A stretch of DNA of 64,000 bases from Lepidodermella squamata (taxonomy: Eukaryota > Animalia > Gastrotricha): the NCBI GenBank assembly GCA_047495785.1, contig JBLDXI010000036.1, forward strand, positions 434,001 through 498,000, in the 5' to 3' direction. The notes under the pieces are model-generated. The model did not search any database. It was given only the letters and a program-made list of their open reading frames with translations, and was not told the origin of the DNA. Shown here piece by piece: positions 19,641 through 55,946 of the stretch. The first letter of the stretch is position 1. The number at the start of each line of letters is the position of its first letter. The position numbers and the translations under genes were made by a program.

Positions 19641-19997
19641 ATGGCATCTAAAATTTCATTGGCGATCGTCGTTTTGGTGAGGAGGATCATCGTTATTTAG
19701 TCTGTCGTAAATGATCTGTATCGTTATAATTTCACATAGGCTGTTGTTACTCTCATGGCATCGGCACAAGAAAAACAACACAAGGAAGGAGATGCGTGCA
19801 CATTTAAGGGTTTTCTCCCGGGCAAATGGACGAAACGCGCATCAACGGGCCAAGTGATTTGCATCACGACAGTTGGAAAGCGTGAGGACGCACGGGCAGA
19901 GGAGACGGCATGAAATAAGGAAGAATGCCCCAGCAAGAACGGCAAGCCTGGCGTTGTTAAGCAGTACAATGGCATAAGGGTCTGCAGTTGGATTTAG
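19641..19997 (+). CDS. Secreted Cys-rich double-peptide precursor, copy 1 (in-frame TGA before the second peptide)
   Basis: MASKISLAIVVL|AVVTLMASAQEKQHKEGDACTFKGFLPGKWTKRASTGQVICITTVGKREDARAEETA*NKEECPSKNGKPGVVKQYNGIRVCSWI; intron 19677-19739. Confidence 0.75.
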
Positions 19998-21363
19998 GTT
20001 CCCATGCGATTGCTGGGTACGATGGGGAGAAAGCACCAAGATTGGAAATATTTTATCTCCGAATTTTATTCCGGTGTGATTCAAAGTTCGACAATAAAAA
20101 CTGATAGCTACGACAGAGGAAAATTGTTAACCTCGGAAATCTGCAACAGCTGCAAAAGCATCGTTTTGGTTCGCAGGTTCTGTCTTGCATATCCCGATTG
20201 AACAAATGGAAATAGGGGCGAAAGAAGGAGCGACCCCGCAAGAAATCTGAAATTAACCGTAATCTGTTCATTCTGTACATTCCCAGCAAAATTCGACGTA
20301 TCCGAATAGCCACAATTTTCTCAAACATTTGTTGCTTCGCTCGCTGATTCACGTTCAAATTTTGTTATATTTTGAGGTTAGAAAGGTTTTGGGGTCGTGG
20401 GGTCGCGAGAAACACTCAAAGCCCACTTTTAGATTTTTCAAAACCTTTCAGAGAGAATTATGAAAAAATATCGTCAGCTAAATCTCGATTTGCTCCCAAA
20501 GGTTAATTAATGCACTGGTTGGAGTTTGGAGGGCAAATATTAATAGGCTAAAAATTTACATGCAATTTCTTTCACTTTTCGATTTTTTGAGAGTGGCGAG
20601 TGGCGACTTCAGTTGGATGACAAATCAGGAGACGCGTAACAATTCATTCAAGAACCCTCAAAACCCCAACCAACCAATAACCAATCCGCTCAAAAGCGCA
20701 CTCGAAAACTTCAATTCTCGATTATCTCGATATCATTACAAGTGGCCGGTTGAGAGTTCAAGAGGCAATGCGGCCGGAAAGGTCGACAGCCGGCCGCCAT
20801 TTTGACCGGGAGCGAAAATAAATCGAGAACCACTGTTTTAAGTGAAACGTTTTCGCTTATTGTATACTATCGCATTGGGGCGGCACTTTGTAGGTTTGAG
20901 GGGCGCATTGAAGGATTAATGGACGATTTCACTTTGAGTGACTGTCTACAATTCGATTGACGAAATATATTACGGCGATAATTAACTAATTTATTGTCTA
21001 AACAACGAGAAATTCACCCGATTACTCACTATTACTCACTGGGAAGATTGTCTCGCGCTCAGATGATTTCTACATTCATTAATCTTGCCAGTGCTTAAGA
21101 AATTATTCTATTTGTTGAATCAGTCGCTCTATACCGCCTTCACCGCTATCACATGACTATATCAACTTGTTATGCGCAACTCATCGTCGATCCAGCCGGC
21201 TTTATTAATAGCCTGTTTTCATAAACAACGGACTTCATTGCTGACGTAGGTACTGAATGACTGGCAAAGTGCTCATGGAGAAGCTCATCTGTGATCAGGT
21301 CATTGTTCAATTTTCTACCTTAAAGATAAAGTCAAATTATTTCCTTTCAACTGTTTACTACTC

Positions 21364-21698
21364 ATGGCAACTAAGCTAACATTGGTGATCGTCGTTTTGG
21401 TAAGAATTCTCCTGTGGTATTTTTTAGTCTACCATTTTTATTATACCAGGCCGCTGTTACTCTCACGGCGTTCGCACACAAGGACGGAGATTCTTGCAGT
21501 TATATCGGAGGTATGCCTGGTACATGGAAGAAAAGCTTGAAAACGGGTCTGCTTGTTTGCACCATGTCATGGGGAAAGCGTGAAGCGCAGCCGGAGGAAG
21601 CGGCACGGGAAGCCTGTAAACTTCCAAACGGGAAGCCTGGCAAGTATCGGCATGCTGGTGCTGCCGGTTTCAAATACTGTGCGCCTATCCATGCGTGA
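21364..21698 (+). CDS. Secreted Cys-rich double-peptide precursor, copy 2
   Basis: MATKLTLVIVVL|AAVTLTAFAHKDGDSCSYIGGMPGTWKKSLKTGLLVCTMSWGKREAQPEEAAREACKLPNGKPGKYRHAGAAGFKYCAPIHA; intron 21400-21449. Confidence 0.8.
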
Positions 21699-26448: not shown

Positions 26449-26799
26449 ATGGCGAATCTTGCTTCTGTCACCGCTTTTCTGGTAAAATCAATTATCCCTC
26501 TCATTCACATTGAAGGTATTGAATTGCTTCATCGAACAGGTTGTACTCAGCATCGTCTTGGCATCCGCTAATGCTTATATAAAGAATGGAGATGGATGCA
26601 TCTTCCGTGGGCACAAACTTGGCTACTACGAGCTGAATACAAGGACCAACGAGTGGGAGTGCATCATGAAAATGCAAGGACGCAAAGCTGCGCGGTGGGG
26701 AAAGCAAGCAGAGGAGACTTCTTCTACTGCCTAACCGATGAATTGGGATCAAGCCATTGGATAATACGGCAGCACAAATCAATATGCGTCAAGAACTGA
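26449..26799 (+). CDS. Secreted Cys-rich peptide precursor, copy 3 (second peptide apparently frameshifted)
   Basis: MANLASVTAFL|VVLSIVLASANAYIKNGDGCIFRGHKLGYYELNTRTNEWECIM..., stop at 26734. A second Cys pair (YCLTDELGSSHWIIRQHKSICVKN) lies in another frame. Confidence 0.65.
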
Positions 26800-27914: not shown

Positions 27915-28257
27915 ATGGCAACTCTCGCATTGGCTATCGTCGTTTTGGTAAGAAGTCACTTTTATTAAGTGAATCATAGCCTTTTTATGTTTTATATCCT
28001 TACAGGCCGCTGTTAATCTCACGGCATTCGCTATGCAAAAGCAAGGAGATCCATGTTTCTTTCACGGCGGTATTCCTGGCATGTGGATGCCAAACTCTGA
28101 GGGCTCTCTGACTTGCAAAATATCTGGCTTGGGCCGTGCGGAGGCTGAGACGAAAAAAGTTATTGTCAAGTGCACTACTGCAAGCGGCAATCCTGGTACG
28201 ATCAAGCGCATTGGTAACTTGGGAATTAAACAATGTGTTGCATTGAAAAAACATTAA
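27915..28257 (+). CDS. Secreted Cys-rich double-peptide precursor, copy 4
   Basis: MATLALAIVVL|AAVNLTAFAMQKQGDPCFFHGGIPGMWMPNSEGSLTCKISGLGRAEAETKKVIVKCTTASGNPGTIKRIGNLGIKQCVALKKH; same intron position as the other copies. Confidence 0.8.
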
Positions 28258-30712: not shown

Positions 30713-30743
<31 letters not shown>

Positions 30744-30859: not shown

Positions 30860-31174
30860 ATGGCTAAGCTGCTTTTAATCATCGTTATTCTGGTAAAATC
30901 GCCTTTTCAAATCCTAAATTCACATTGAAGGTGTTTTACACTTTTCTAACAGGCTGTGTTCAGCACTGTCTTGGTATCGGCATGGATATCATGGGGCGAC
31001 AGCTGCTATTTGGGCAGGAAAAGAGGAAACGGCCACTACGAAAAAAATGCAAGTGGCGACCGATGGGTGTGCATCCCGGGTCCGAAGCCGATTACCACAA
31101 CAGCGGCAAAGCCGACTTCGACAAAGGCTCCCGCGCGGCGTGCACCATCCGCCACAACGAGAAGGTCCGGTTGA
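30860..31174 (+). CDS. Secreted Cys-rich peptide precursor, copy 5 (one Cys loop plus Thr/Pro/Ala tail)
   Basis: MAKLLLIIVIL|AVFSTVLVSAWISWGDSCYLGRKRGNGHYEKNASGDRWVCIPGPKPITTTAAKPTSTKAP... Confidence 0.7.
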
Positions 31175-33580: not shown

Positions 33581-33754
33581 ACTTCTTCAATGTTGATGAA
33601 AAATTCGACCTGTTGCTAGTCAAGTGAGGAGGGCTGAAAGTCGATCAAAATGCTTCCATACACGTGGGGCGAATATCCACCGGAAATTGACTATGCCGCC
33701 GAACCTTCGACCCGCACTTTTTTCGATTTTAGTTGCAATTTATTACCGAATGCA

Positions 33755-34164
33755 AGTAGTTAGGAGGGGGAGGGGTGATTCCCCCTGGACCATGACCAAA
33801 GTGACGGTTAGGGTTAGGGTTAGGGTTAGGGGGAAGAATTGCCCCTCCGGGGATAGAAGTCAAATTTGAATTAACCCCCACGGTGTCTGGAGGGGTGGAA
33901 ATGTCCCGAAGGTGTCTGGAGGGATTGAATCGTCCCCACGGTGTCTAGCGGGATGAAAATGTTCCCGATGCGTCTAGCGGGGTTGATTTGCCCCAACTAT
34001 GTCTAGAGGGGCGGAAATGTCCTCACGGTGTCTGGTGGGGTTGAATCGCCCCAACAACGTCTGGAGGGTTCGGATCGCCCCACAAAATCTAGCGGGGTAA
34101 AATAAGTGTCATTGACCTGTAAAACAATACATTCCAAACCGTTTTATTTTACACCAAAACAAAA
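33755..34164. repeat. Maverick left terminal inverted repeat, containing (TTAGGG)4 and 8 x 29-bp subrepeats
   Basis: Reverse complement of 51572-51981 with only a few mismatches. Confidence 0.95.
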
Positions 34165-34203
34165 CAGGTTGAAACAGGTTGATAGATCATAAAACGATTT
34201 ATT

Positions 34204-35443
34204 TTAGGATTCAAAAAGTATGCGCAAGCTGTATACATATGGCGCGTAATTAGTAGTAGTAGAGTGATGACGATAAATCGAACGGTGCGTGCGCAATTTT
34301 CGGAAAAGAATTTTACGTGTGGAGGGATTGCAGCGTTCGAGTAGCAGTGAGATCAGTTGGGAGTTTTTACTAAACATCACAACATTGAAAATACTGCTGT
34401 GGTGTAGATCCACTGTTGCTGACCAGTAATCACGATACGCTAGATGTGGTCGCATGACCAAAAAACTCCGGAAACGTTGAATATCGTCAGGTGATATTGA
34501 CGCAGTATTCAGCATTTTGATGAGAGACGTAGCCTGTGATATGATAAAACGATAAGATGAAAACCCACTCAACAAGGTAAAACATACTGCAGCCATGTTA
34601 CGTTGGTAATGCGGCGTAATGATACGCAGATCCTTTGCGTCGGAGCCTTCGAAGAAAGTTTTCGGGAATCTTTCCTCGGGATACACACGAGTAATATCCC
34701 ACGGCATGACATAACATCCACCACGGGGGTAGTCGACTAAGCAGTTCCAATCAGTGTGATATTTCTGGAACATCATAAAATAATAGCAAATCAAAGCGAG
34801 TTGAAACATACCTCGACCGATTTGTAGTCATTATACCATTTGACTGGGGGTGGAATCAGGTAATTAAAATTCGAGTCCAATAGTGTTGAAGGCGGCCAGG
34901 TCTTACGGATTGGAGGTTTCAAAACGTCGAGCATCTGAAATATGAAAGGAAAAATGAAAACAACCGAGAGATATGAGTAAATCAACTTACTTCAGGACAA
35001 GAACTGCTAATGATGCGAACAATCCACCAAGGTCCACAAGTTATCAGATCATAGTCTTCGTAATTTTCAAGGCTGGTAACTTTTTTGATGAATTCCTCAC
35101 GCGTCATCTTTCCGACATCACGCACGTCGCCATGGTAAAAATGATATGCAGTCGATGCAACGAAATTCTCGCGGAAAAGTGGTTCAGACTTGAATGCCAA
35201 GGCGAAACGATGGATGGATGATCGATCTACTCGGCATCGAATTAATTCATAGCCTTTCGCTTCACCGAATTGTGCTTTGACCATTTCCTCCCAGCAAAAG
35301 CTGCTCGAGATAATTGTATGCCATTGATGGCACACCAACGTGCAGACTTTGAAAACTTCCTCAGTGTCTAGGTAGCTCAAAATTTGAGCCGCAAGTTCTG
35401 CGGTAAGCTCAAAATGTAAGAAATTCATAAACAATTTAGACAT
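34204..35443 (-). CDS. Maverick cargo: F-box protein, 3 exons
   Basis: N-terminal LTAELAAQILSYLDTEEVFKVCTLVCHQWHTII (F-box). Introns GAA|GTAAGT..TTTCAG and GAG|GTATGT..TTCCAG join ORFs 34982, 34791 and 34204. Confidence 0.75.
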
Positions 35444-35768
35444 TGTAACTTGGAATTGCTAGATCACTGAGCAAGGCTAAAGTAATACGGCTACTGCTCC
35501 TACCAAAATAAGTTTCCGGATACTCGGGACATGTGCCAACGCCCGCTGATCGCACTTTCTCATTAGTGAGCGGTGCGCTGTACTCATTAAGGGCTCATTA
35601 TTGTACCCGGTAGAAGGTGCTGGTTTACTCATACTCATTAACTGCGAACCAAGTTGATCCAAATAAACCAGTGTGATTTAATATTTATTTGAAACCAAAG
35701 CAAACGAGTGGTGCCACCACCACCACCGCCGCCAACACAGGTTAACAGAAATGTCTATGCGATGGTAA

Positions 35769-36806: not shown

Positions 36807-37194
36807 GAAGAGATAAAAGTCGCTCTACTATTGTAGGTAAAACACTTGCAGCGGCTGAAATTAGAAGAGGAATGAATGGACCAGAACCTTTTTGGATTAG
36901 ATAATTCCGGTTGGAATCAAGTGATTTGCTGCGAGAAAGTTTCGTTATGTCGCCTTTATATGCTCTGAGTCTACGTATGGTTTTTGGCTCGCCTGCCAAT
37001 TTCTTACGGAGCAGATTCAAGCAGATTTCCGACAGTAGAGCTACAACGCTAACTGGGGCTACCGCCAAAAGACGACGCCTCTGGCTCGGTGGTGATTGAG
37101 ATAGCAGCTTGAAATAGTCGATCGTTCGACTTTGTTTAGCCAATCGAATGTTAGCTAGACGTTTGTCAGGTTGAACCTTTTTATTTTTGACCAT
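36790..37194 (-). CDS. Maverick PW-like basic protein
   Basis: LSEICLNLL...LR.YK...LIQKGSGPFIPLL pattern, including a QxGxG adenain-type cleavage motif. Confidence 0.7.
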   Translation of the reverse strand: MVKNKKVQPDKRLANIRLAKQSRTIDYFKLLSQSPPSQRRRLLAVAPVSVVALLSEICLNLLRKKLAGEPKTIRRLRAYKGDITKLSRSKSLDSNRNYLIQKGSGPFIPLLISAAASVLPTIVERLLSLRGGDH

Positions 37195-37267
37195 TTAAGC
37201 AACAGAAAGCAAAATCAAGTAGTAGTAGCGCTAATACTAAGATTGTGCCAATGTTAATGTTTATGCC

Positions 37268-38141: not shown

Positions 38142-38218
38142 TTCAGAAATTTTAGGCTAATCGGTTAATTTATGAGCTCAACGAAGTTATTTACATATTA
38201 CTATTTTATTATTGCTAC

Positions 38219-38728: not shown

Positions 38729-38738
38729 GAATAGTAAT

Positions 38739-40089
38739 TTAGAAGAAATTGTGAATTATCGTTCGGTTCGATTGAATTTCCAAAACTTTGTTTTTATACT
38801 CCATCAAGCAAATCAGCGTTGATGCTTCGGGTATTTTCTCGCTGAAGACAAGATTCATCTGCATTTGACCTGTCTGAATCAGCTTTCCGTTCGGGTCGCT
38901 GTCCAAACTCGTATCGAACCCAAGGATTGTTCCGCCATCACTAATGAACTGCTCTCGACTGATTTTAACACATTTCGAATTAGAGTGGGGAAAGATTGTA
39001 TCTTGCATCAACTGATAGATTCTGGAAACGTCGTTCGTTTTGAAGTTCATTGCCATTGGAGTGGACGAAATCGGCTTCCCATCAACCGTTATTGTAATTG
39101 AGCTCAAATTGTGATGCATGAAATTGAAGGGGTTCTTCTTTCCAACCCCCTGCAAAGTGTCGTCCGCAATTATGCCTGTAAGATTAAGAAAGAAAACGAA
39201 TGTACGATTCCAGTCAACTGCTTAAGAACCTACACATGATCAGTTTTGAGGGTAAAACTCCCAGAACGAGATTGTTCAGATGGATCGAAGTTACATTCAT
39301 AGGCAGGTTGAATGGTTTCGCCACAATATGATTGAAGGAATATTTAGCCGGAGCGACTTGCAATGCCCGCTCAAGGCCGATTACAACCTCGGGAGCTACT
39401 TCGACACGTCTCACGAGTAGAACACATTCAAGAATTGTGAAGTCGTATTTTGCGACATCATCACTCATGAGAAAGAATTCCTTCTTGTTTTGAGTTAATT
39501 TCAAACGAATAGGCACGTTTGGGATCAACCATTTTTCCTGGTTGAAAAAGTCAGTCTGAAGACGGCCGCATAGACTAATGACAGGGTTTTTGCTTGCGGT
39601 CTTCACCAGGTTTAGACGCTTTTTGAACCCTTCATTAGCAGTCAAGCTGTTCATTTGCCCGAAAGTATCCAAATACCAACCCGAGTTGGTCAACTTCGAG
39701 CTTTGAACATCTTCACTAGCCGATAGTAAGGTTTGAAGATAGCTCGAATAGGCATGAAGACTGGTGTTTTGAGTTATCAGAGTTTCTGAAACCCAGATAT
39801 GCACGTCCTGCCAAAGACTATTCAGCAAATTGTTGACAGGGGCGCAGTTGAAAAGGACATCGGTGACATTCTCGTCATCTGTCGTAATGCTAGCTCTAAT
39901 AGACAGGTAGCAGCGACTGAGATCGGTGTAGTGCTCACTTGGTGGAACTTGAAAAGTGATCTGCTGCCCCGATGTGATAGCCGATGTTGGGAAAACCTCA
40001 GTGAAATGGGTTCCGAGAACTTCTCGAGTGATCGGAGGTAACGCGAAGCTGGCTAGCTCTGCACGAATAGCATGAGTTTCTTCACTCAT
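38739..40089 (-). CDS. Major capsid protein (PY, double jelly-roll), 2 exons
   Basis: [45 protein letters not shown] motifs; intron 39176-39233. Confidence 0.92.
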
Positions 40090-40096
40090 CTCTGTA

Positions 40097-40181
40097 CTGG
40101 TTGGTTGGTTGGTTGGTTGGTGGGTGGGTTGGTTGGTTGGTTGGTTGGTGGGTGGGTTGGTTGGTTGGTTGGTTGGTTGGT
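40097..40181. repeat. (TGGT)n microsatellite immediately upstream of the MCP start codon
   Basis: About 21 tandem TGGT units with two TGGG interruptions. Confidence 0.9.
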
Positions 40182-40278
40182 AAGTGAGAACTAGAAACTA
40201 CGATTTTCCAAAGTTTTATTATTATAGTCTGATTTTCTAATCTTTACATAGTAGAAGTAGTAGTAGTAGTAGACTAAT

Positions 40279-40740
40279 TTAGAACAAGATGCGAGCATCA
40301 TTTCCAGTCTTCACTCGCTTTGATGGCATTATCATCGACAAAGTTCGTTTCGAATTTTTAGCTTTGTTCCGACGACGCTTTCGCGAACCCTGACCGTACT
40401 GATTGGCAATGTGACTGACCGCCTGTTTCCCAATACTAGATAGTCCTTCACTACCTCGGTTTTTAATGATTTCTCCAAGCTTGAGCTCGTTGCCTGATTG
40501 TTGGCGATCAGCAACATCTGAGGCAATGTTAGCAGTAGTAACAGCAGCAGTTCGTAATAGATTAGGTAAAAAAGGTAGAAGAGTCGAGCGAAAGAATGAA
40601 CGCAAAAACGAGCCCAGCCCATTCCCGCGCATGACCACAACAGATGGTCCAGTGAAGGGTTGGATTGATGAAGATCCGCCTCGACCGGTTTGCGAGAGAA
40701 ACCATGAATAATACTCATCACTTGAGATTGGAACACGCAT
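40279..40740 (-). CDS. Maverick PM-like / core protein with protease sites and an amphipathic helix
   Basis: QTGRG, MRGNGLGSFLRSFFRS..LP, QYGQG, followed by a basic RKRRR tail. Confidence 0.75.
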   Translation of the reverse strand: MRVPISSDEYYSWFLSQTGRGGSSSIQPFTGPSVVVMRGNGLGSFLRSFFRSTLLPFLPNLLRTAAVTTANIASDVADRQQSGNELKLGEIIKNRGSEGLSSIGKQAVSHIANQYGQGSRKRRRNKAKNSKRTLSMIMPSKRVKTGNDARILF

Positions 40741-40757
40741 ACTCTTGATGGTTTATT

Positions 40758-41906
40758 TTAACCCTGACGGATAGGTCTTACATGTAGAATAGCCAAAGAT
40801 TTGTTCGAGCCTGTGAATTTCACTTTAGACCCATCATCTTTACATAGTAAAATTGTAATGCAATCGAGAATCTGACTACGAATAGTATGGTAGTAAGGCA
40901 TCGATTGAGCAAAGTTCGTCACAGAAAACTGCTTCCGCGCATTGTCTCCAGTGCCAATAGGGAAAACCCTCAGTAATTCAACAGATTTGTCTCCTACGAT
41001 CGTCGGCTCAATTATATCGGTGTATGCGTAAATCAGAGGTGTGTGAAACCAAAGTTGGTGCGGAAAATCCGCCAGCAGTGGGTCTTTAACAGCTCTGTAT
41101 TGAATATCCGCAACCATCTTAGCGCTTCCATCTGAAGCTTTTTGGTACAGCGTCAGCGTTAAAATTCCACTCTCATCCTCGCTAAAGGTCCGTTTCGGAC
41201 CATGCATCGTCGTTATTCGCTTACCAGAGTCCTTCCCAGCCAAGATGAATTTTAAGACATGCGAAAACAAGGATAATTGTTCACGCTCATGCTTGACGCG
41301 TATCTCTTCTGCCTCTTCCGGTGTTTCCACAGCTGTAACATCCTCATGAGGTGGGACGTTGATTAAAAGCGTACCCTTTTCAAAGCCGAGAATTTGAGCC
41401 AAGAATTTTGGCAAGTAGATGCCATAGCCAACTTGTGGACAAAGTTCGATGCGGCTTTTCCGTTCGATAGGATACATAGTTATCATGAAGCCATCGGGTA
41501 TCGCGCTGTTCATGTCATCAATGAGCTCAGCAATTGAAGTGTAAACGCGATTGCCAACTACACACTCCCTGAATACATCAGGCTTGTCGAAAGGGGGTGT
41601 AATTAATCCATCCTCAGCCAAGTAGCTCGTTTTAAACACGTAAAATGATGTCTTCTCGACAGTAATCATCTCAGCAGGGTGAGTTATTTCTACCAGGGCG
41701 ACTTCATGCGAATTCATGAATCCTAAATCTGATTACCATGAAGATTATAACAGAAACTTTTCAGAATTTATTTGAAATTTACCTATTGGATGTGGCAGCT
41801 TGATTTTGAACTCGGCCGCATTATTGTTGGGATACAGAGATTCGCAAGCATGGCTCGGGAGATGGATAAAGAATTCGCGTCTGAAATAGCTACTGTGATG
41901 ACTCAT
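40758..41906 (-). CDS. Minor capsid protein (penton, PX), 2 exons
   Basis: Exon 1 FFIHLPS...YPNNNAAEFKIKLPHPI, intron 41729-41782, then EVALVEI ... IYAYTDIIEPTIVGD..LLRVFP ... LHVRP. Confidence 0.88.
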
Positions 41907-42294
41907 TGAAAACAGGATCAAAGCTGATGTCTGTTGACTTCAGGTGGCAAAAGGGCAAGTTTTCAGTCGACGCTGCAGCTACTGCTGTTGTTGTTAATTT
42001 CGGTGATTGTGTCCACAGAAGCGGCAGGTATACTAACACCGAGGATAACAAGAGCAAAATCAAGCTAAGGACCAGTACAGTAATTTTCTTTGAGCGGTCT
42101 GAAAGCTGTGAAAAAACGGCACTAGGACTGGGCGAAACCTGCGGTGCTCGTAGATTGTTCGTAAAGTATTGACGAATTTGTTGAAATGTTAATTGGTGTG
42201 ATTCATTCGAACGTGACGAAGCGTTACGTCGTAGATTGCCCGAAATTTCAGGGTTGGAACTTGACTGCATTATTGAAGTAGCCTTTATATGCAA
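41890..42294 (-). CDS. Small single-pass membrane protein of unknown function
   Basis: Hydrophobic stretch ITVLVLSLILLLLSSVLVYLPLLW; lies between the integrase and penton genes. Confidence 0.5.
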   Translation of the reverse strand: MHIKATSIMQSSSNPEISGNLRRNASSRSNESHQLTFQQIRQYFTNNLRAPQVSPSPSAVFSQLSDRSKKITVLVLSLILLLLSSVLVYLPLLWTQSPKLTTTAVAAASTENLPFCHLKSTDISFDPVFNESSQ

Positions 42295-42345
42295 CAGTGT
42301 CGGTAGATTTCAAGGTGGCAGCAAGGCATCTCCCTTTACATAGTT

Positions 42346-43464
42346 TCAAACGTGTTGCAGCTCATAATCGTAGAGGACACGTTTTAATTCCTTGGCTCTC
42401 GTATTCAGCTCAGGTGAGACACGGTAAGCCACAGTGGAGTGATCGTTCGCCGGTAGGACATTGGTCACGAAATAATAATCCTCACTAAACGTAGGATCTT
42501 TGACTCGATTTCGAAATGTTTTTCGCACCTCCTTGATACGAACTCGATCACCAACTCTGAAGTTGACTCGAACTTTACGCAGTTTCTTATTGACTTTGAA
42601 CACGTTTCGAAAGGCTGAGTAGTTATCCACATGCTCCTCGTAGACATTCATGACTCCTGGTTGACTGAGATCTTCATTTATCACTGGATCATGCCTCCAC
42701 AGTTGGCTTGGAGACATTCCAGTCGTTTTGTTCACGCAGTGGTTAATTGAATCGACAAAGTCCTGCAACTTGTCAACGAACCGTTTTGTGTCGTTTGCCA
42801 TCATGTACCTCACGATCCGAGACCTCAAATTGAAAATAAAGGTCTCAATACTTCCGACCTTCTTCGTGGACTCGGAAAGATAAATGCTGGATCCAATCTG
42901 CTTCAAATAAGCCTTAACTTTAAAGTCCTTGAATTCAGATCCTGCGAATTAATTATCCAATGGTCTTAACAGTAGCTATATAATCACAAATGAGTCACCT
43001 TTATCGGTCAGCACCTGTGACGGAACTATGCCTGCATCAGTGACAATCTCTTTGAGAGCCTCCAATACTACCGCTCCGGTCTTGTTTTTGCATGCACGTG
43101 CCCATGAGTAGCGCGTAAACAAGTCCTTTATCACAAGCACATACTTTTTCTTGAAATTGTGCCACTGAAAAGGTTTCGTCAGCTCCAACAAGTCGGCGGC
43201 AAAACACGATCCTTTGGCAAAGATCGCTACTCTGCGATAAAGCTTCCTGTTGCGAGTTGACGCTTGTCGAAACCTAGAATATGCCGGTTGTTGGCTGAGC
43301 CAATGTTTAACCGATTTAAGCGTGATTAGTTTGTTGCCTAGGGCCCGCTTTTTCGCAGCAGCGTACACTGCTTGCACACCTCGGAAACTACTAGATAAAC
43401 TAGGACTGTAATATAACGGATGAAGTATGTCATCGAGATCGGTGAATTCAACTTCATTTAGCAT
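42346..43464 (-). CDS. Maverick retroviral-like (rve) integrase, 2 exons
   Basis: YY.P, V..WL..Q.AY, AADL (D), KYVLVIKDLFTRY.W, TDKG|SEF (D), IETF (E), FRVGDRVRI, YDYELQ; intron 42942-42998. Confidence 0.93.
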
Positions 43465-43566
43465 GATTGAAAAGTTTTATTCGAAAGCAATGTCAGAAGT
43501 TTCTATTTATGCATTTTAGAATCAGAATTATCATGTCCCCAAGCAAAAGAAAATCATTAAAGAAGT

Positions 43567-46500
43567 TCAGTAGCCAAAAGGTTTCGTTTTGTAACTTTCA
43601 GTGTCTGTTATAACTCGTTTGTGATATTTGAATGATAGGTTTTTCATAACCTCCATTATCATCACTCGGGCGTAATCGGTGTGGTATCGACGCCACAGAG
43701 TTTGCTGCAGTTGAATTGAATCACCTTCATTCGCAACCTTCATAAGATTGAGCAGCTTATCGAAGTCAACCTTATTCTTGACAGCCTGGTTCTGGGTGAA
43801 ACCTTTCAGTTTCATGCTCAAGTTACCCTTATTAGTAACATACGAGTACGTCTTCGGGGCAAGCGCTAAAAATCTTGTAGACCACAATGTGCAAACGGTT
43901 GATTAAAACATTTGTTTGCAAATAGAAATCTACCTTTCAATGTGTTCTCCTTCCGATAGTTCATTCGACCAACTACCTAGATAGCTGCCTCGGTTCAATG
44001 GTTCAGGCCCATCTGGTTTCGAAATGTAGATGCAGCTGTCGGTGTCGCAATACAATGCAACACCTTGTAGATGCCGTAGCTGCTCAAAGAGAATCAATCG
44101 AGCTTCAGCGGTAATCATTGCAGCTGTGACGATATTTGCACATGGAATTGTGGGTTGGAACTCAAGCTTCTTCGCATGACCAATGCGCATTTTTTCACCA
44201 GTTGGGCACCCATCATATTCGTCAGCTAGCTCAGGCTTCAACCCATCAGAGTCATCCTCACGGTGAAAAACAGTCAGATCTTGAACGATGCAACCAGGTT
44301 GATTGAGGATTTTGACTAGTTCCATGGGTGAGTCAACGTAGGTGTAGTCGACGGAGTCGGATCGAAGTCCCAACTTGCCATAAGCTATAGTTACGTATCA
44401 GTCAAATCTAATCCATCACTACACTCCAAGCTAAAACTTACCACTGTTGAGAATCAGTTTTCCGATTTGTCTCATTGCAGCATTCGGTCGACTCAGCTTG
44501 ACCCGATTAAGCTCAATGCCATAGAGCTTACGACAGTTGTTGACATAGTCCTCAACTTCTGATTCATTGCAACCGCTGGCCTCCAGTTTGATCTTTTGAG
44601 ATAAAGATAAAAGATGAAATTTCATGAACGGCAAAATGCTAACGTATTTACTTTTAGCATTGCATAAATGAATGATCGGAAGAGGTTCGACGTTTTGCTG
44701 TTGTAGTGATATGACTCTAACATACCGTCAACAATTAGAAGACGAATATCGCACATGTCTCAAGAAATTTACCGTAAAACCTGAGAACTTGATACATTTC
44801 CAACTCAAGTCCACGTCGTAGTTCTGAAGTTGAGACAAACACATTGAATGCCCGCTCTTCGTCAGCATGCTGACATTGCTCCTGGCATTCTTCCTCGGCA
44901 CATGTACGGCATAGCGTAAACAAAAGGCGACCCTTGGCTGTTCGGTATGGAATGCATGGTAGGTAGAATCCTGCAAGTTGATTGAACGATTGATTATATA
45001 TTTTGCAAATTTGGAGAATTTGAACCTCGATTGGGCAGTAGTAGAACATGCACCATTCCAAAGGTCGGATTTTCAGCATTGAAAAAGTGATGCCGGAGTT
45101 TCAAGTCATCGTTGCGCCAGTCCAATACCTTGTGATCGACTGGGCCAACAGGGAAGAAGATTTCTTTGAAGCCATTTGAATCTGAACCTAATACGACAGG
45201 ATTTGACATATTTGCTCAAGTAGTTCTAATCCTACCAATCCTTCCACTGAGCACTGATGGGTATAGGGATACAACATCGATGTATTTGATGGTTTCACCT
45301 GGCTGAGCTTGGTGATGCAGTTGGAACACCTACGCAAACTAGAACACTTAACTTTTTTGTTTTCGAGGAGGTCGAGTATCACCTCTGTCCGGCCACCAAA
45401 GTATCCCATTCGAGGATTCACAGCGCTGACAACATTGACACACCTTTCGATGTACTCCACAATTCGCACATCGGCTTCTTCGAGCATCTTCTTCGCCTGA
45501 CATCCCCAGATGGAAATTACCTTGTAGCCGGAGTTGATGATGGCCTGCTCACGCTTGATAGTTTCATCGTACAGTTTGTGGAACGGTAGGCGCCTTGTTG
45601 GTTGTATTTGCTTCGGATCGTAGCAAGTTGGGCAGCCATGGATGTAGTCACCATAATATTCCCAGAGAGTAATCACACCGGTGGTTTCATCAACAGACCA
45701 ACCATCAGGTCTCGCAAATCGTAACCCATTACCATTTTCAAGGTAGAAAGTTTTTTCGCCATTCGAGTTTCCCGCATGCTTGATGTCGATGCCAAGGGTA
45801 GTGGCCATGTAATCCAACCAGATAACAGATTCTCGTGAGCACCTCGCACTGGTATTAGGTTTCATTAGCCAATTTCTTAAATTCTAACAACCTGACCAAA
45901 ACTCACTTTGACCCATAGCCCATAGGAGGAACCAGATGCATGGGTGTTGACGGGTCCAAGTATAGAAAGCGTAATATCAAACTTGCAAGAGCAGCCAATG
46001 TGCGACATTCTGAACACTCAGATCAGGGTAAATGAAGATATTCACAAGTTTCAGGACTCACCCAACAGAGGATCGATTCCAAGTGGGGCTTTGACAGGAT
46101 CGATTGTGATCTCCTTGATCGTTTCCCGGAATTTCAGAATTCCGAATCGGAGAACATCAACATCAGCGATGCAGTAACTAGTCGCTGTGGCTTTTAGATT
46201 GAAAACTGCATCATGGTTAGCAGCGATATGCTCCTTCAATTTTTCGAGTTTGACCGGCGACATATTGCTCGTGTCGTAGCTTTCGATAGTTGGCCACGCG
46301 GTGTCAGTAGAATTCTCCCAGTTTTCAGGTGTAAGAAGTAGATAGGGAAAAAATTCTTTCACGATGCCCTGGGGAAGATCAAAACACTGTGGCAACTTTT
46401 CCAGCGATGTGTAAGTGAACAGGTATAAATCTCGGAACAGAATAGCCGAATTTTCAACGTTCAACTCCATCAGAGAACTACCGTGCTGAATTTGGGTGAA

Positions 46501-48734
46501 ATTCAAGTCACTAGTTTGCAGGAATCTGTTTAAATTGTTCAATTTCAAATTTTATGATAAAGGCTGCTGTTGTTCAAGACTAGTTACCGTAGAATGAAGA
46601 AATGATCGAATCTGTAAATTATCATTTTATCACTATCATCGTTTTACTCGGCGGATTAAATCTGATCTCACCTTGCACCGTTTTGACTGATCAAGATTAT
46701 TCCAGGGTGTATTCGTAGAACATAGCGTACAAACGTCCCAATAGCGGTTGAATCGGCCGATTGTGACGCGAACACAAGCTGTCTCCGAGCACCACATTTG
46801 GCTGGACATGGAACATTCATTGGCGACTCGCAGCAAGAGTCACAGAAGACTTGCAGTACCACGAGTACGGGAATCAGCTCACCGTTGGACGAGCGGCGCA
46901 CAGATTCAACGTCCCATGCGCCAAACTTGACGGTTTTACCAGGCTTTACCACTTTCAACTTGGGGATTTGTAGTTTGCAATCGTGCTCGTTTTTCTCACC
47001 GTAGGGTGGAAGCTCTTCGCTACACGTTGGGCATGTTCTTGGTTTACCTAGGTATATCCGCTATACAAGGGTTGGGTTTTGCTTTCAACTTACAATTATG
47101 CTTTGGTTTGTAACTTTGAGTTATCACCCGAGCACACCGGTTACAAAAGTAACGCGTCTGGCAAATCGACCGTCGTTGGTTGTCTCTTACGTTCGGTTTA
47201 AGATGCTGTTCGAAGCATTCTCGATTGTAATACGAGTTGTTGCAGGGGCCAGTGCAAAGGATCGGCTTTTCACGTCTCTCCTTGCAGTTCATTGTTGCAG
47301 AGTGGCATCTGTCGCATCGATTCACACACTTGTGTCGGATCAAATCCTTCGTCATGAACCAGCATGATCCGCAAATACTCTTCCTACCAGATATTTCACC
47401 TGTGCAACCTAGGTTTCGGACTGGATGACGATGTATCGATAGAGTGAGACGGTTACTTACTTTTCAAAGCGTGGTAGTGCGACAAGCTTGTGGCTGCAGG
47501 CCCACGGTTTTGATGAAGTCTGTTGTTTGCGTAGCCAATGTATATTCGCTTCTCACCATCGACTTGGGGACCTTCAGGGTAGACGGTTGTGATCCGACGA
47601 GTTGCGAAATTGTATATTATTCCTAAGTTTAAAAGATGTGCACTTTTCCTTCATTCAGCCACTCACTCCTTCGCTCACCTCTATACCCATGTCCAAATGA
47701 GTCAATCAATTGTTTGAAATGTGAAACTCCGTAGGCAGGAAGGTTAAGCGGGATTCCTGCTATGTTCATCTGCTCAACAGCCAGATCTCCCAAATTACTG
47801 TAGCAACGACTAGCCGGTTGGTTGATAGCCCACAATTGTTGCTTGAGCCTTCCAAACTCTCGTTTCGCTTGAGCCCTCTCATCAGCATCGGAAATGTTTC
47901 TGCATGCTATTGAAGCCAATTTTGAATCGCGGTAAGCCTTCGATAGCATGGTTGCCCTTATTAAGCAGTAGTTGTCTGTAGTATTAACAATTCGCATGAC
48001 TTCGTTGCAACTAGTAATGGAATCGAACGCAGTCATTTCCAAACGCAGACGTTTGAACTCAGGTTTCGGTCCACCACCTTCACATTCAGCTTCAGCTTCG
48101 ATTTCTGTAACTTTCACTCGAAAGATGTTGAAAAACCATCCTATTTTAAAATTAAAATCACGCCAATATTTGATGTTTGGCACTAGGTAAGATGTACCCA
48201 TATTCATAGATGGAGATATTTTCGATTGTAGAACACGTTCTGCCGTTTTCATGATGAACATTCCGGTGAGTTCAGCCACACGCACGTACGGGGTCAAGAT
48301 GGGCGTTACCAGGTCGTCGTGGATACACTCCACTCTGACTACATCTCTATAGGTTTTGATAGGTTCAATGAAGAGACTATTAGAAATTATAACACAATTT
48401 ACCGTGCAGGAAATTGTCGCTTTACTGTTTGCGCAATTGACTCGAAGAAAAGATGAATCGAAACCAGTAGCGTCAGAATGTCATCGGTCGTAACCCAGTT
48501 GAATCCCAAATCTTCCGTGTTGGGACTGAGCTCTCCAGCACCTAGTTGCATTAGAGGCAATGTTGCGCCTTGTGCATATTTATGGACATCCATGCGGTAC
48601 AAAGGGCTGTACTCATGAAAGCCTAGATGTATTAAACTCGATAACTCTTGAGACATTATTTGAAAAATGTGATAAATCCCCATCTTTTTGCACAGCTTAA
48701 ATACAACACTTTTAATTGGATCGTGAGAACTCAT
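43567..48734 (-). CDS. pPolB: Protein-primed family B DNA polymerase with terminal-protein region, OTU-like and Vsr-like domains; more than 12 exons
   Basis: Spliced motifs: ERVLQS (TP region), DNYCLIRA...HYH (OTU Cys/His), Cys-rich fingers, WDVES (ExoI), NGAR|FD (ExoII), YCIADVDVL (ExoIII), PDGW..WEYYG..HGC (Vsr-like), GGRTE, DVVSLYP, KLILNS|AYGK, YCDTDS, PKTY, KGF, PFGY. Exact start codon uncertain (48656 or 48734). Confidence 0.93.
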
Positions 48735-48852
48735 TATTTTATTTCAGACGCCTGGCACATCATGTCTGCCCCGCTAGACAAAAACTTTCAGACAAAACAA
48801 AAACACATGCAATTATTCTGCATGAGAGTTGATCGAATTCAATTAGTAAGAT

Positions 48853-49335
48853 CTACGGGGATGTTGGGTTGTAAATTGGGCTTGCAGATCCTGCAGCTAC
48901 AACCTCGCCATTTGTTTGTTCTCCAGATGGTAGCGACGATGGCGGCGGCGGCGGCGGTGATGTAGGTGCGTATGTAGGGGATGGTGGCATCGCATCGCGC
49001 TCGGCTTCTTCTTCTTCTTCTTCATCATCATCGTCATCATTAGCAGTGTCTTCTTGCCAATTGATGGCCGCCGTTATTTCGTCGGCGAGCTCCGACTCGT
49101 CTTCGGATGATCCTAAGCTGATCACTTCATCCGATAGCCGGCGCCTAGCAGTAATTCGAGGTAACAGCCAGTTCGACTCAACTCGCTTGGCGATCGACTC
49201 AGATGTCTGAGTACCAATTGAACAGGACTTGATGAAGAGATGGTCAGCTGGGCGCGAAATTGTTGATGATCTTCGATGAGTGATGACATGGCTTTCGTCC
49301 TCCGATTTTTCAATAGTAATCATTGCACGCTTCAT
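48853..49335 (-). CDS. Acidic low-complexity protein with a SIM-like motif and two Pol II CTD-like heptads
   Basis: EVISLGSSEDES, a poly-D/E tract, SPT-YAPTSPP and SPI-YNPTSP at the C-terminus. Confidence 0.6.
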   Translation of the reverse strand: MKRAMITIEKSEDESHVITHRRSSTISRPADHLFIKSCSIGTQTSESIAKRVESNWLLPRITARRRLSDEVISLGSSEDESELADEITAAINWQEDTANDDDDDEEEEEEAERDAMPPSPTYAPTSPPPPPPSSLPSGEQTNGEVVAAGSASPIYNPTSP

Positions 49336-49387
49336 GATAGCTGGTCGACTTTTGTGCTAATAATAATATAGCTGCTGATAAAACTGT

Positions 49388-49981
49388 TCAGACTACTAGG
49401 CAGTAATTTGCAATGGCAGTCAAAAAGTCTTGAATGTGAGTCGTTAGGTTGCTCATATCTTCGCCACCACCGCAGCCAGTCAAGCATATTCGCCCTGTAT
49501 GAAACAGGTTTACACATATTCTAGTACCGAACACATGTTTGCACCGCATCGCAGGAAACCTTGTCAGATCTAATTTCACTTGTTCGCAGATTGTGGTAAT
49601 TTCCGACGCGAGACAGGGCCCTAATTGGGGTTTAAAAGGCAATTTACCAGTAAGCGCGCGATTAACCACTCGGTAGTTCGTGAAAGTAATTCGTGCGTCT
49701 AGTTTTCGCTGCATTCGTCTTGCCAGTTGCCTTGCTACGGTTTTAGATTCCGTAAATTTGACATTCTCTCCAGGCGGTCTCGTCATTAGTAAGACGGTTT
49801 TTCCATTGCCAAAAACCAGTGCGGTATATTTCACTGGTTTAAATTGTTTGATAATAACAGCGTTCGGGAACGATTTCTTGATTTCACAAAATTTGAACTG
49901 CTTCATTACTTTACGGAGAGGTAAACGAACATTCAAGTTAAAAACTGAGACAATATTTCTGATATATAATTCAACTTCCAT
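49388..49981 (-). CDS. TBP-like: Divergent TATA-binding protein (TBP)-like protein, intronless, encoded by the Maverick
   Basis: Two TBP repeats: RNIVSVFNL..L.L...KSFPNAVII...P..TALVFGNGKTV...ARQLARRMQ...F.NYRVVN...F...TRFPAM...RICVNLFHTGRICLTG, aligning with TBP QNIV..KRFAAVI..TALIFSSGKMV..ELFPGL..LLIFVSGKVVLTG. Confidence 0.85.
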   Translation of the reverse strand: MEVELYIRNIVSVFNLNVRLPLRKVMKQFKFCEIKKSFPNAVIIKQFKPVKYTALVFGNGKTVLLMTRPPGENVKFTESKTVARQLARRMQRKLDARITFTNYRVVNRALTGKLPFKPQLGPCLASEITTICEQVKLDLTRFPAMRCKHVFGTRICVNLFHTGRICLTGCGGGEDMSNLTTHIQDFLTAIANYCLVV

Positions 49982-50185
49982 TTAAAAAAAAAACTGAGCA
50001 ACTGACACATTTCAACGTTTCACCATTTATTTAATTATTTCGCAAAAAAAATCCAAAAGCATTCTAATTTCTGCTGAAGCCTATGCATGCATGCATGCTT
50101 GGTTTTTCCCTATAAGTAAAGTAATGTGATTTTCATTGTGTAAGTCTCTCGCTGTTTTCTTGCGATTCATTTCAGTTTGCTGCAT

Positions 50186-50920
50186 CTACTTCGACTCCAG
50201 GGCTTGTTGAACCGGGTTTGCCAGAATACTGTATATCATAGCTTGCAGCTCCAGGAACACACCCTCTGGAATACAGAAGCCATCTGGGGTGAATTCAGCT
50301 TTCTCTTCCGATCTTTTGTTAAGAATTCGTACATCAACGTACGCACGCGGCGATCCGTCTGGGCGAAACACACGAGCATGTAATAGTCCGATAATTACGT
50401 ACCTCGGTCCGTTACGAGCTCCGTTACGAGTCTTGAGGTCGCGCTTGACTTTATCGACCCAGCCGTGAGATCCTTCAACTTGCATAGTTTCATAGAGCAT
50501 TCGTAGCTCCTTAGCCGATAGCCAGAGACCCTTGCGGAGGTAGTAAAGTTTGTTTGCTTCAATGGCATGCCCGATGTAGAATTCAAGATCGGGTAGGTAC
50601 TCGTTCAACTGCCGGCGCAGAATAACAAACGAGTGATCTTTGTGACTCGTAACCGTCTGCAGTGAAACAACATACTGAGCTCGGTGGAATCTACAGATTT
50701 CATCGAAAGGTGAAGACCCATCGCCCCAGACTCGATCAACGTATCCTTGAGGTGGTAGCAATGGCCCGTCGGTATGTACCATTTCACTTGCTGCTTTCAT
50801 CAATATCTCATCAGATAGTTCGAACGCAACAGCTTTCAGCAAGTTTGCATCATTCGATGGTGACGACGGGGGCGCAACATGGTCGGCTTCCTGTACTGCT
50901 TGACTGCTAGAGCTTGCCAT
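50186..50920 (-). CDS. Putative tandem PC4-like ssDNA-binding / coactivator protein
   Basis: FVILRR...LRKGLWLSAKELRML and AYVDVRIL...FTPDGFCIPEGVFLEL both resemble the PC4 motif YVDIR...PxKKGISLxxEQWxxL. Confidence 0.55.
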   Translation of the reverse strand: MASSSSQAVQEADHVAPPSSPSNDANLLKAVAFELSDEILMKAASEMVHTDGPLLPPQGYVDRVWGDGSSPFDEICRFHRAQYVVSLQTVTSHKDHSFVILRRQLNEYLPDLEFYIGHAIEANKLYYLRKGLWLSAKELRMLYETMQVEGSHGWVDKVKRDLKTRNGARNGPRYVIIGLLHARVFRPDGSPRAYVDVRILNKRSEEKAEFTPDGFCIPEGVFLELQAMIYSILANPVQQALESK

Positions 50921-51571
50921 TGTAACTAGATTGATCCTGATAGCTGCGAGTATAAAAACAAAACTTTTTAGTATCTATAAGCCGAACTTAGGCGCTTATA
51001 TACACGTCCAATTTGATGATCCAGGCATCGTCGCCGCCGCCGCCGCCGCCATTTTGCTAGTTCCCACCGTCTACCCCGATGTCTGCAATGTGTTCTTGAG
51101 ACATGATCGGTAGGCTTGATAGACATATATCTCGTAACCAACCTAATTGGCGCTGAATAAATAGGTAGACAAAATCAAAGTCAGAGCACAATTACTTTTT
51201 ATTTTTCAAAGCTTATTTGCTTTCCAACTCGATCTGTTTACTTTTCAACACTAAAAATGAATAAGGAAGACCTTACCGCCATGTGAGTGCTTTTGTGATA
51301 GAGCCCAGGTAGTCAGTTTGACCATACATACTTTATTTTCTACTACAGTGAAAGCAGGTTAAATGAACTGAGTTTTCGGTTACATTTCATCAAACATTTG
51401 ATACCTCAACTATCATCGCATACAGCACGATTCCTTGAAGACGCCGAGGAGGTCATCTTCCGACTACGTTTCGGATTGCTGTTGGCGTCAGAGCAGATAG
51501 CTAACCCGTCACCCCTCAATACGAAGCCCTGGGCTCAATTCTTTAAATGAACTACTTAATATTAACTTTGA

Positions 51572-51981
51572 TTTTGCTTTGGTGTGAAATAAAACGGTTT
51601 GGAATGTATCGTTATACAGGTCAATGACACTTATTTTACCCCGCTAGATTTTGTGGGGCGATCCGAACCCTCCAGACGTTGTTGGGGCGATTCAACCCCA
51701 CCAGACACCGTGAGGACATTTCCGCCCCTCTAGACATAGTTGGGGCAAATCAACCCCGCTAGACGCATCGGGAACATTTTCATCCCGCTAGACACCGTGG
51801 GGACGATTCAATCCCAACAGACACCTTCGGGACATTTCCACCCCTCCAGACACCGTGGGGGTTAATTCAAATTTGACTTCTATCCCCGGAGGGGCAATTC
51901 TTCCCCCTAACCCTAACCCTAACCCTAACCGTCACTTTGGTCATGGTCCAGGGGGAATCACCCCTCCCCCTCCTAACTACT
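51572..51981. repeat. Maverick right terminal inverted repeat
   Basis: Inverted copy of 33755-34164, ending ACTACT and followed by the TSD AATGCA. Confidence 0.95.
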
Positions 51982-54291: not shown

Positions 54292-54607
54292 ATGCCTAAG
54301 CTCTGTCTTGTAATCATTGTTTCGGTAAGAATTTCTGTCAGAGATGAATGAATTCTCGATGAAAGTGAAGGTTTTTCAGGCTGCAATTGTAATTGTATCG
54401 GCCATCAAGCCAGGCGACAAATGTGAAAATCAAGGCGCACAGGGCCGTTACGAGCGCGATGAAACAGGTTCTGCTTGGATTTGCGCAGTGGAAGAGGGAC
54501 GTGAAGGTGGGCGGATAGGCAGGGAGTGTACGACAAGTAATGGCAAGCCTGGCAGAATTACGTTAGGCGACGGTGGTTGGTATTGCCGAGCAACTCATCA
54601 AGGATGA
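54292..54607 (+). CDS. Secreted Cys-rich double-peptide precursor, copy 6
   Basis: MPKLCLVIIVS|AAIVIVSAIKPGDKCENQGAQGRYERDETGSAWICAVEEGREGGRIGRECTTSNGKPGRITLGDGGWYCRATHQG. Confidence 0.78.
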
Positions 54608-55712
54608 ATGTAACGCTGCTGCTGCTGCTGGATACGATGAGGAGGAGCAGCAAGATGAGTAATTGGAATATCCGTGACGAGTTGTTTCAAATCGCCAAAA
54701 CGCCTAATCTTGAAGAGGCCCGTTTGTTCAATAAAATAAGGCATGAGACTTTTCTCAGCGAAATGCCAGGCTTTGTCCATAGCATGTCGTAGTTTTATTT
54801 ATATAGGCCCTCCGCCGGCCGGCGCTATAGGCACAAATGAATGACATCGGAGTATGAAAATATATTGCCCCCATGCTATCTAGGGCTCGTAGCATTTATA
54901 GATTGAACATTATCATAATTTCGAGTTTTATGTTATTGTTTTATTTTTGTATTTTAGTTTTTGTCGATTTTTGTTGGCTTATTGTGCGTTTTTGTAGAAA
55001 GGTAGAAAAGTCGATCGAGGGTTCGGGCTCGTTGCGCAAATTGAGTAGGCTGAAAATTATCAAAGGTGGTTAACGGCAATAATTAAGGGCTTACAGGCAG
55101 GGCTATTCCAGCTCATCCGACTCATCCGGCTCAGGTTCCGAAAGGCTCAAGGCTCAAGGTCAGGCTCATGACGACTCAGGCTCAGTCTCAGGGCTCTGTA
55201 AGGCAAGGCAGAGATCAATTCATTAAACGGTAAGCTTACATATTAATCGGGCTGGCTCGAGAGGGGCTCAGAAGGACGAGGATCGCAAGGGCACCTAAAG
55301 GAATACAGGAAACCACAGGCTCACATTAGTTTTAGGGAAAATGTCGGTGATGAGGCGGCAGGGCTTAGCCGGGGCACTAATGCAGTCACGCAAGTGCCAA
55401 GCTGGACAGTCCTTACATATTTAATTTTTTTGTAATATTTTTGTGAAGTTGCTTTCTGCGATTGTCATACTGTGTGGAAATCAGGCAGATACCAGACGGA
55501 ACATTTTACAGTACGCACAACAAATAAGGCCCCCCGCTGGTTAAGGTCATCGGAAAACGCAAAAATTCGAGCCGCAATTTTCACCCGTATTATTTTTGTA
55601 ATATTTATATTTCTTATAATTAAATGAAAAATATTTATTACATTAAAATATTGCTGAACTCTTCAGCTATTACTCAAATTCACATTGAAGGTATTGTATA
55701 CTTTTCTAACAG

Positions 55713-55946
55713 GCTGTGTTCAGCACTGTCTTGGTATCGGCATGGATATCATGGGGTGACAGCTGCTATTTGGGCAGGAGAAAAGGAAACGGCCACTACG
55801 AGAAAAATGCAAGTGGCGACCGATGGGTGTGCATCCCGGCGACTCGACGATCAGCCGACTTCGACAAAGGCTCCTGCACGGAAAGCACCATCCATCACGA
55901 TGAAACGGTCCGGTTGATAATCGCAATCTTCGACCGACTCAGATGA
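55713..55946 (+). pseudogene. Peptide family copy 7: duplicate of copy 5 exon 2, no exon 1 visible, frame-changing deletion in the tail
   Basis: 55675-56125 is nearly identical to 30915-31380; upstream sequence is unrelated repeat DNA. Confidence 0.7.

Follow-up and report, generated by a model that had tools for sequence, protein, structure and literature searches.

A tandem family of small, predicted secreted peptide precursors with putative single-disulfide modules and a possible host-defence role in a gastrotrich

The window analysed here, 64,000 nt of contig JBLDXI010000036.1 of Lepidodermella squamata, carries seven paralogous small genes in a tandem array, all on the plus strand, which is interrupted by an 18-kb Polinton. 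The family, whose gene models are predictions, is real, apparently functional and undescribed. We lean somewhat towards the view that its members are tandem secreted host-defence precursors, most likely antifungal or antibacterial, that give rise to one or two three-stranded peptides (from modules 1 and 2) of about 30 residues with a single disulfide. The copies and sites referred to below are as follows.

19540..19581, plus strand: motifs upstream of copy 1, AATGAC[AT]G at 19540 and TCAG[GT]TCATT at 19572
19641..19913, plus strand: copy 1; exon 1 19641-19676, intron 19677-19739, exon 2 from 19740
19797 and 19860, plus strand: Cys codons of copy 1 module 1; GKR at 19875-19883
19911-19913, plus strand: in-frame TGA of copy 1, at the end of its acidic linker
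19914..19997, plus strand: copy 1 module 2, in frame past the stop; Cys codons 19926 and 19983
21116, 21256 and 21295, plus strand: motifs upstream of copy 2
21364..21698, plus strand: copy 2, intact, two modules, 94 aa; exon 1 21364-21399, exon 2 21450-21698
21573-21581 and 21594-21608, plus strand: copy 2 linker sites GKR and EEAAR, respectively
26449..26734, plus strand: copy 3, single module with a short tail, 75 aa; exon 1 26449-26481, exon 2 26540-26734
26678-26686, plus strand: GRK of copy 3, whose upstream motifs are at 26272, 26351 and 26390
27915..28257, plus strand: copy 4, intact, two modules, 94 aa; exon 1 27915-27947, exon 2 28006-28257
28132-28143, plus strand: GR-AE of copy 4, whose upstream motifs are at 27673, 27811 and 27850
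86 nt 5' of the copy 4 ATG, plus strand: TATA-like box
30860..31174, plus strand: copy 5, single module, 84 aa; exon 1 30860-30892, exon 2 30953-31174
30761 and 30800, plus strand: motifs upstream of copy 5, whose tail is Pro/Thr/Lys/Ala/Arg-rich
33755..51981, no strand: Polinton/adintovirus-type element of 18.2 kb, between copies 5 and 6
54292..54607, plus strand: copy 6, intact, two modules, 86 aa; exon 1 54292-54324, exon 2 54380-54607
54491-54502, plus strand: EEGR of copy 6, whose upstream motif is at 54131
55676..55946, plus strand: copy 7, a pseudogene and partial copy 5 duplicate

A first-pass annotation of the window had placed a seven-member plus-strand family here, and this was confirmed by the gene models, by a hidden Markov model (HMM) of the modules and by nhmmer, which found exactly seven copies across the window and no more. 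The ATGs of copies 1-6 lie exactly at 19641, 21364, 26449, 27915, 30860 and 54292, and position 55713 is the first base of the orphan exon 2 of copy 7. The HMM, built from 11 modules, scores these modules (its own training set) at 38-52 bits, and the best other sequence among 2104 window open reading frames (ORFs) and 121 stored proteins at 6.5 bits, a margin well beyond chance. The proposed gene structure also stood for copies 1-6. Exon 1 comprises 12 codons in the first two copies and 11 in the next four, and the introns (63, 50, 58, 58, 60 and 55 nt) are phase 0, bounded by GT-AG and located within the signal peptide. Splice-pair enumeration left a single natural model per gene, in which exon 2 supplies the end of the leader followed by the mature part. 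The leaders of copies 1-6 are predicted signal peptides of 19-23 residues, with a hydropathy of 3.1-3.8 over 11 residues and a closing -3/-1 pattern of A-x-A or V-S-A in 6/6. Precursors are 75-97 codons in size, mature chains begin 6-10 residues ahead of the first Cys, and an AATAAA lies 92-157 nt 3' of the stop in 6/7 copies.

Module 1 is found in all seven copies (G-D-x-C ... G-x-[WY] ... C, Cys-Cys spacing 19-21) and module 2 in four, copies 1, 2, 4 and 6 (C-x4-G-x-P-G ... G ... C, spacing 18-20). The two Cys are invariant in 11/11 modules, and precursors carry 2 or 4 Cys. The mature motif described in the first-pass annotation is therefore present, although its two Gly are usually three residues apart rather than two; the second loop, which was said to occur in most copies, is there in 4/7 but encoded in frame in only 3/7, that of copy 1 sitting past the in-frame TGA. 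Profiles of modules 1 and 2 align over 28 columns (E 2.8e-4), and as this homology indicates, the precursor likely arose through internal duplication. Past copy 3, a C-x18-C stretch that lies in a different frame was rejected as a further module: it has no module-profile score, and 103 such stretches in six frames are the chance level.

A Gly-basic site follows module 1 by 2-6 residues in 5/6 complete copies. Only copies 1 and 2 have GKR; copy 3 has GRK, copies 4 and 6 have GR, and no processing site lies 3' of the module in copies 5 and 7; the linker sites listed earlier hold for GKR in copies 1-2, EEAAR in copy 2 and EEGR in copy 6, but not beyond these. In spider complex precursors such as cupiennins and latarcins, several peptides are likewise joined by short Arg-bounded acidic linkers with Glu nearby, and such a linker is defined by Arg and Glu at its start and Glu..Arg at its end (PMC7889660). 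By this definition, the linker of copy 2 qualifies, those of copies 1 and 6 do so partly, and copies 3, 4, 5 and 7 are without one, so that the earlier reading of Glu-rich motifs ending in Arg as toxin-type processing sites applies fully to one copy. Taken as sequence features, the Gly-basic sites and acidic linkers suggest processing into amidated peptides, and the C-terminal Gly of copy 6 may possibly be amidated as well. Predicted peptide-1 charges are +3, +2, +1, 0 and -3, and charges from Cys to Cys range from -2 to +5.

In the host-defence scheme that we propose, signal peptidase would cut off 19-23 residues, one disulfide would close each module, and a convertase would cleave after KR, RK or R. 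The Gly exposed in this way would become the C-terminal amide of peptide 1 (31-36 residues), and, as happens in spider complex precursors, the acidic linker would be cut away at its final Arg, freeing peptide 2. Cationic members (copies 1, 2 and 5 and most second modules) might bind anionic microbial surfaces, and a broader target range would follow from divergence among the copies. Module 1 would act in the manner of the C-terminal half of NFAP2-type proteins and may be derived from it, without being an NFAP2 member. The family would probably work like known multi-peptide defence or venom precursors, on a scaffold for which the searches returned no family.

Mean amino acid identity over pairs of copies 1-6 is 51% in the signal (151/299), 37% in module 1 (133/359) and 43% in module 2 (52/122). 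The contrast drawn earlier between conserved signals and hypervariable mature regions is therefore upheld by the identities (51% versus 37-43%), but not as a sign of positive selection: the non-synonymous rate (dN) is below the synonymous rate (dS) in 12/12 segment comparisons printed, covering five copy pairs. For copies 1-5, the proposed dN/dS check put the modules at about 0.4-0.75, below 1, and leaders are more conserved than modules at synonymous and non-synonymous sites alike. Purifying selection would account for dN being lower than dS, with faster change in the mature part.

Some copies are damaged, as had been noticed at first pass. Copy 7, a frameshifted orphan exon, begins inside the intron of copy 5-type sequence, matches it over 164 nt at 96%, lacks exon 1 and promoter and is frameshifted after the module; it goes back to a recent, incomplete duplication of copy 5. 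Copy 1 carries its in-frame TGA. In run X1, which could stem either from the source sample or from a relative and whose contigs show presence only, both contigs spanning 19911 read a sense codon there, and an open form of copy 1 therefore exists. Fifteen X1 contigs align on 501 nt around copy 1, X1 contigs match 5' and coding parts of the genes with many differences, and in one contig 89 different letters replace 86 in the module-1/linker region of copy 2; these divergent contigs point to more alleles or paralogues. Without the Polinton, copies 5 and 6 would be 5.2 kb apart, similar to the other spacings (1.4-5.1 kb), and the array is then compact.

The genes also share upstream motifs. TCAG[GT]TCATT, which appears initiator-like, lies 5' of 5/6 genes with 0 other plus-strand matches in the 64 kb; AATGAC[AT]G lies 5' of 5/6 genes with three other such matches, and TGAATCAG 5' of 4/6 genes with one. 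All three sit at fixed distances from the ATGs and have been kept while the introns decayed to 44-65% identity, compared with 42-43% for random sequence. Since the motifs were picked from the same regions and are shared by descent, they constitute support, not proof.

The first-pass annotation had named a match to a well-known family, or to a repeat derived from a transposable element, as what would speak against its proposal, and neither was found. In Pfam, 0/8 exon-2 queries scored above the cut-off (one chance row, E 0.076) and 0/11 modules matched. The copies do not overlap element ORFs or inverted repeats, and the peptide genes have no terminal repeats or target duplications; we therefore rejected a transposon-derived repeat. 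A homologue search confirmed 0/274 candidates, and a metagenome scan with copy 2 confirmed 0/96 pattern matches. Among 1.84 billion representatives, a profile of 58 positions covering the leader and module 1 only had as its sole match an unrelated 683-aa repeat protein, and the PDB searched by sequence gave nothing below E 0.01. A trypsin-family SWG..C..KPGVY segment at E 0.02 to the 11-module profile was lost with module 1 or module 2 alone and was set aside as chance. A neighbouring ligand-gated-channel-like gene, used as a control, also returned 0/762 candidates; as it too drew a blank, the empty peptide searches reflect poor sampling of the lineage rather than novelty.

A possible relative emerged from structure prediction. 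For copy 2, AlphaFold predicted a three-stranded sheet per module (predicted local distance difference test, pLDDT, 59.5), and for a single module with the 11 aligned modules a sheet at pLDDT 89.8 with strands 6-9, 13-19 and 26-30, the Cys being placed on the first and third strands of the model. The best of 48,161 chains was NFAP2 (8rp9), residues 17-52, with Z 2.9, root-mean-square deviation 1.3, 29 aligned residues and 38% identity; the other 23 structural rows have 3-22% identity, and for the copy-2 model NFAP2 ranks second. The range ends (model 1-31, chain 17-52) put the two module Cys at NFAP2 Cys23 and Cys49, a pair that makes up one of its three native bridges (PMC10273333). Identities to NFAP2 seen by eye fall in three blocks, H-K-x-G-x-x-C, G-K and G-Q-x-x-C-I-x-T. 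The scaffold, not recognised at first pass, thus has a weak lead in the C-terminal half of fungal NFAP2 (Z 2.9; profile probability 88%). With Foldseek, neither the PDB nor the viral libraries gave a match at E 0.001, and its 220 chains, when re-examined, gave Tudor-type rows only (Z up to 2.5).

Fungal NFAP2-like loci were fetched from metagenomes by the N-terminal motif alone, which the window peptides do not have. Six-Cys models were obtained for 16/23 loci, 12 of them distinct (7 loci gave no such model and 4 duplicates were dropped). G-D-S-C stands at the matching place in 7/12 distinct models; its Asp is invariant in module 1 and absent from NFAP2 itself. In the published list of 219 NFAP2-like proteins, G-D-S-C occurs in about 24 rows, with 48 occurrences over two columns, and the 15 rows among the matches listed are all NFAP2 (PMC13525654). 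The fungal C-half profile matched module 1 with a probability of 88% (E 3.2e-6, 29 columns), at a score of 24.8 compared with a column-shuffle maximum of 18.7 (0/388 as high, holding Cys or Cys+Gly in place). An HMM built from the fungal halves ranked copies 1 and 2 first and second of 2225 sequences, weakly (E 0.07 and 0.16), and the module-1 HMM matched metagenome locus L016 end to end at 18 bits. In sixteen of these loci (L001, L002, L005-L012 and L014-L019), a phase-1 intron interrupts the NFAP2-like gene ahead of the fifth Cys, and the predicted models of L001, L007, L012 and L015 are without the gamma-core Gly.

The window peptides are predicted to be small and secreted, as NFAP2-like proteins are, and would have a three-stranded sheet that a bridge corresponding to Cys23-Cys49 may close. 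The two groups share the pattern H-K-x-G-[DS]-x-C-x-[FY]...G...G-x-L-x-C, and the Cys-Cys span is 19-21 in the window peptides versus 21-22 in short-loop fungal members. NFAP2-like precursors have a signal peptide and fewer than 129 aa, and those of the window have 75-97 codons and a predicted leader. Family membership calls for at least 6 Cys in the mature protein (PMC13525654); with 2 Cys per module rather than 6, we rejected membership. In place of the gamma-core G-x-C-x(3,9)-C, 7/7 module-1 copies have G-x-[WY], no Cys pair within a module is less than 18 apart, and the N-terminal CxCPNNC segment is missing. Unlike NFAP2 genes, the window genes have a tandem second module, a putative Gly-basic amidation site, an acidic linker, an intron in the signal peptide and a host that is likely an animal. 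NFAP2-like proteins are reported exclusively from fungi, in a survey whose filters would exclude two-Cys forms (PMC13525654), and we found no report of animal NFAP2-like proteins in the open-access literature. We regard homology by transfer from a fungal NFAP2-type gene as a tentative idea, the less favoured one when set against convergence or chance, which make up the remainder. The corresponding history, equally tentative, is that an animal gained such a gene, lost the N-terminal CxCPNNC and its partner Cys, kept one bridge, duplicated the module, added amidation and linker signals and expanded it in tandem.

Other known systems resemble the family in part. Spider complex precursors carry linear cationic peptides and a long acidic propeptide, whereas the window genes encode disulfide-closed beta modules with no propeptide; on account of these two-Cys beta modules and the missing acidic propeptide, we rejected assignment to that class. 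Arenicins carry a BRICHOS prodomain, which the window precursors lack. Arenicin-1/2, thanatin and lactoferricin have one large-ring disulfide (PMC4410394), as is predicted for each window module, and several window modules are cationic. Single-disulfide hairpin antimicrobial peptides have two strands; the window modules have three predicted strands, two peptides per precursor and no sequence match to them, and a strongly cationic two-stranded hairpin was rejected on the predicted strands and the Cys-to-Cys charges of -2 to +5. Clip domains have six Cys in three bridges and are joined to a serine protease. This assignment was rejected too, with two Cys per module, no protease and only one weak fold row (2xxl, Z 2.1). 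As a precedent only, horizontal transfer into animals, from a proposed plant donor, followed by multigene expansion and disulfide loss has been put forward for the drosomycin-type antifungal scaffold (PMC9751787). That scaffold has a CS-alpha-beta fold with 3-4 bridges and shows no sequence or fold match to the window peptides.

A number of points weigh against the host-defence reading and its fungal component. Splicing, cleavage, amidation and activity are predictions. Given the predicted peptide-1 charges, copies 4 and 6 are not cationic, and a charge range of -3 to +5 is unexplained by a uniform membrane-lytic role. No strict NF-kappaB site lies within 600 nt 5' of any gene (6/6). Positive selection was not found in the five copy pairs, in which codons are few and dS is near saturation; of the birth-and-death pattern of venom and antimicrobial families invoked at first pass, the tandem copies, damage, conserved 5' parts and divergent mature parts stand. 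The NFAP2 match is weak: E 3.2e-6 multiplied by 48,161 chains is about 0.15, not significant for a library of that size, and Tudor-type rows come within 1 of its Z of 2.9. Three-stranded sheets of this small size are widespread, viral proteins fit this one equally (TM up to 0.77, E > 0.1), and column shuffles also remove strand periodicity. Module 2 has no match to the fungal C-half profile (E 0.18), the hairpin register is shifted by 2-3 residues relative to NFAP2, and the fungal intron (phase 1, before the fifth Cys, 16/16 models) differs from that of the peptide genes. NFAP2 residues 10-20, which include CPNNC, insert into membranes in simulations (PMC11351017), and this segment is mostly missing in the window peptides; the gamma-core fragment of NFAP2 alone was inactive (PMC5845869).

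Several other functions were weighed. Venom or prey-capture gland peptides, with ion channels or membranes as targets in prey or predators, seem unlikely. The linker of copy 2, with its Arg-Glu start and Glu-Ala-Ala-Arg end, has the spider complex precursor design, the leaders are conserved while the mature parts diverge, and amidation signals are present; however, the peptides have a single disulfide and match no Pfam toxin family or PDB sequence, and spider precursors of the same linker design carry linear peptides. Similar acidic linkers are also known in antimicrobial and hormone precursors, which counts against venom. We give about the same small chance to signalling, pheromone or reproductive (seminal or egg-coat) peptides whose receptors belong to the same species. 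Hormone precursors typically carry Gly-Lys-Arg amidation sites, the charges run from acidic to basic with no strict NF-kappaB site, and the common promoter motifs suggest one cell type. Unlike receptor ligands, the modules are only 37-43% identical with C-termini beside the amide that are not conserved, and gene damage is frequent.

Less probable again is that the one or two modules stay uncut and serve as binding proteins of an adhesion, cuticle, mucus or lectin-like kind, with basic sites that are there incidentally. Copy 5, with a mucin-like tail and no processing site past the module, would suit this, as would a three-stranded sheet, a common binding module, but the position of the Gly-basic site 2-6 residues past module 1 in 5/6 complete copies argues against it. 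That the genes are mostly dead duplicates or a repeat-derived artefact is very improbable. In its favour are the pseudogene state of copy 7, the stop that the assembly shows in copy 1 and the density of transposons in the window; against it, frames, splice sites, the Cys/Gly pattern and promoter motifs are kept despite near-random introns, dN is below dS, and no copy overlaps element ORFs or inverted repeats.

The surroundings of the array contain further features. The Polinton ends in 410-bp terminal inverted repeats (98.5%; AGTAGT...ACTACT) with a 6-bp target duplication, AATGCA. Inside it are pieces of a B-family polymerase and of an rve integrase, along with two minus-strand ORFs, one TBP-like (49391-49981; PF00352, E 2.6e-13) and one with an F-box (34985-35458). 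A 29-bp tandem array and four units of the (TTAGGG) type, at about 51905-51930 and mirrored near 33800, lie within its terminal repeats. A gene at 10373-11878 (minus), possibly acquired horizontally, encodes a Cys-rich, secreted repeat protein with 199 relatives from protists, bacteria and metagenomes. Another candidate small secreted precursor lies at 9273 to about 10247 (plus), with a hydrophobic leader, a RAKR furin-type site and, near 10020, a likely second exon. A C-type lectin gene (PF00059) is at 12927-14003 (minus), and a gene at 7325-8541 (plus), with no Pfam match, we take to resemble a glycosyltransferase. Very divergent ligand-gated-ion-channel-like genes (weak PF02931) lie at 32297-33586 (minus) and 61332-62857 (plus), the former having no homologue among 5.8 billion proteins. 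Together, the short introns, the lectin, the divergent channel-like genes and the Polinton suggest that the host is an invertebrate animal. Direct repeats are found at 24033-24437 and 25346-25750 (405 bp, perfect) and at 56907-57164 and 59435-59692 (258 bp, 99.6%), and inverted small-repeat copies flank copy 5 (29213-29738 and 31388-31693).

Single-disulfide peptides of about 30 residues of this kind are undescribed and directly testable through synthesis. If the NFAP2 link is true, a family reported as exclusively fungal (PMC13525654) would gain an animal branch through transfer of a defence peptide from fungus to animal, and the peptides would offer a natural minimal scaffold and a natural check on which NFAP2 half is the active one; if their origin is fungal, this would be the first NFAP2-derived family outside fungi. 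If the likeness is convergence, the genes would still represent a new animal precursor design of the defence or venom type, with two homologous beta modules, in a poorly sampled lineage.

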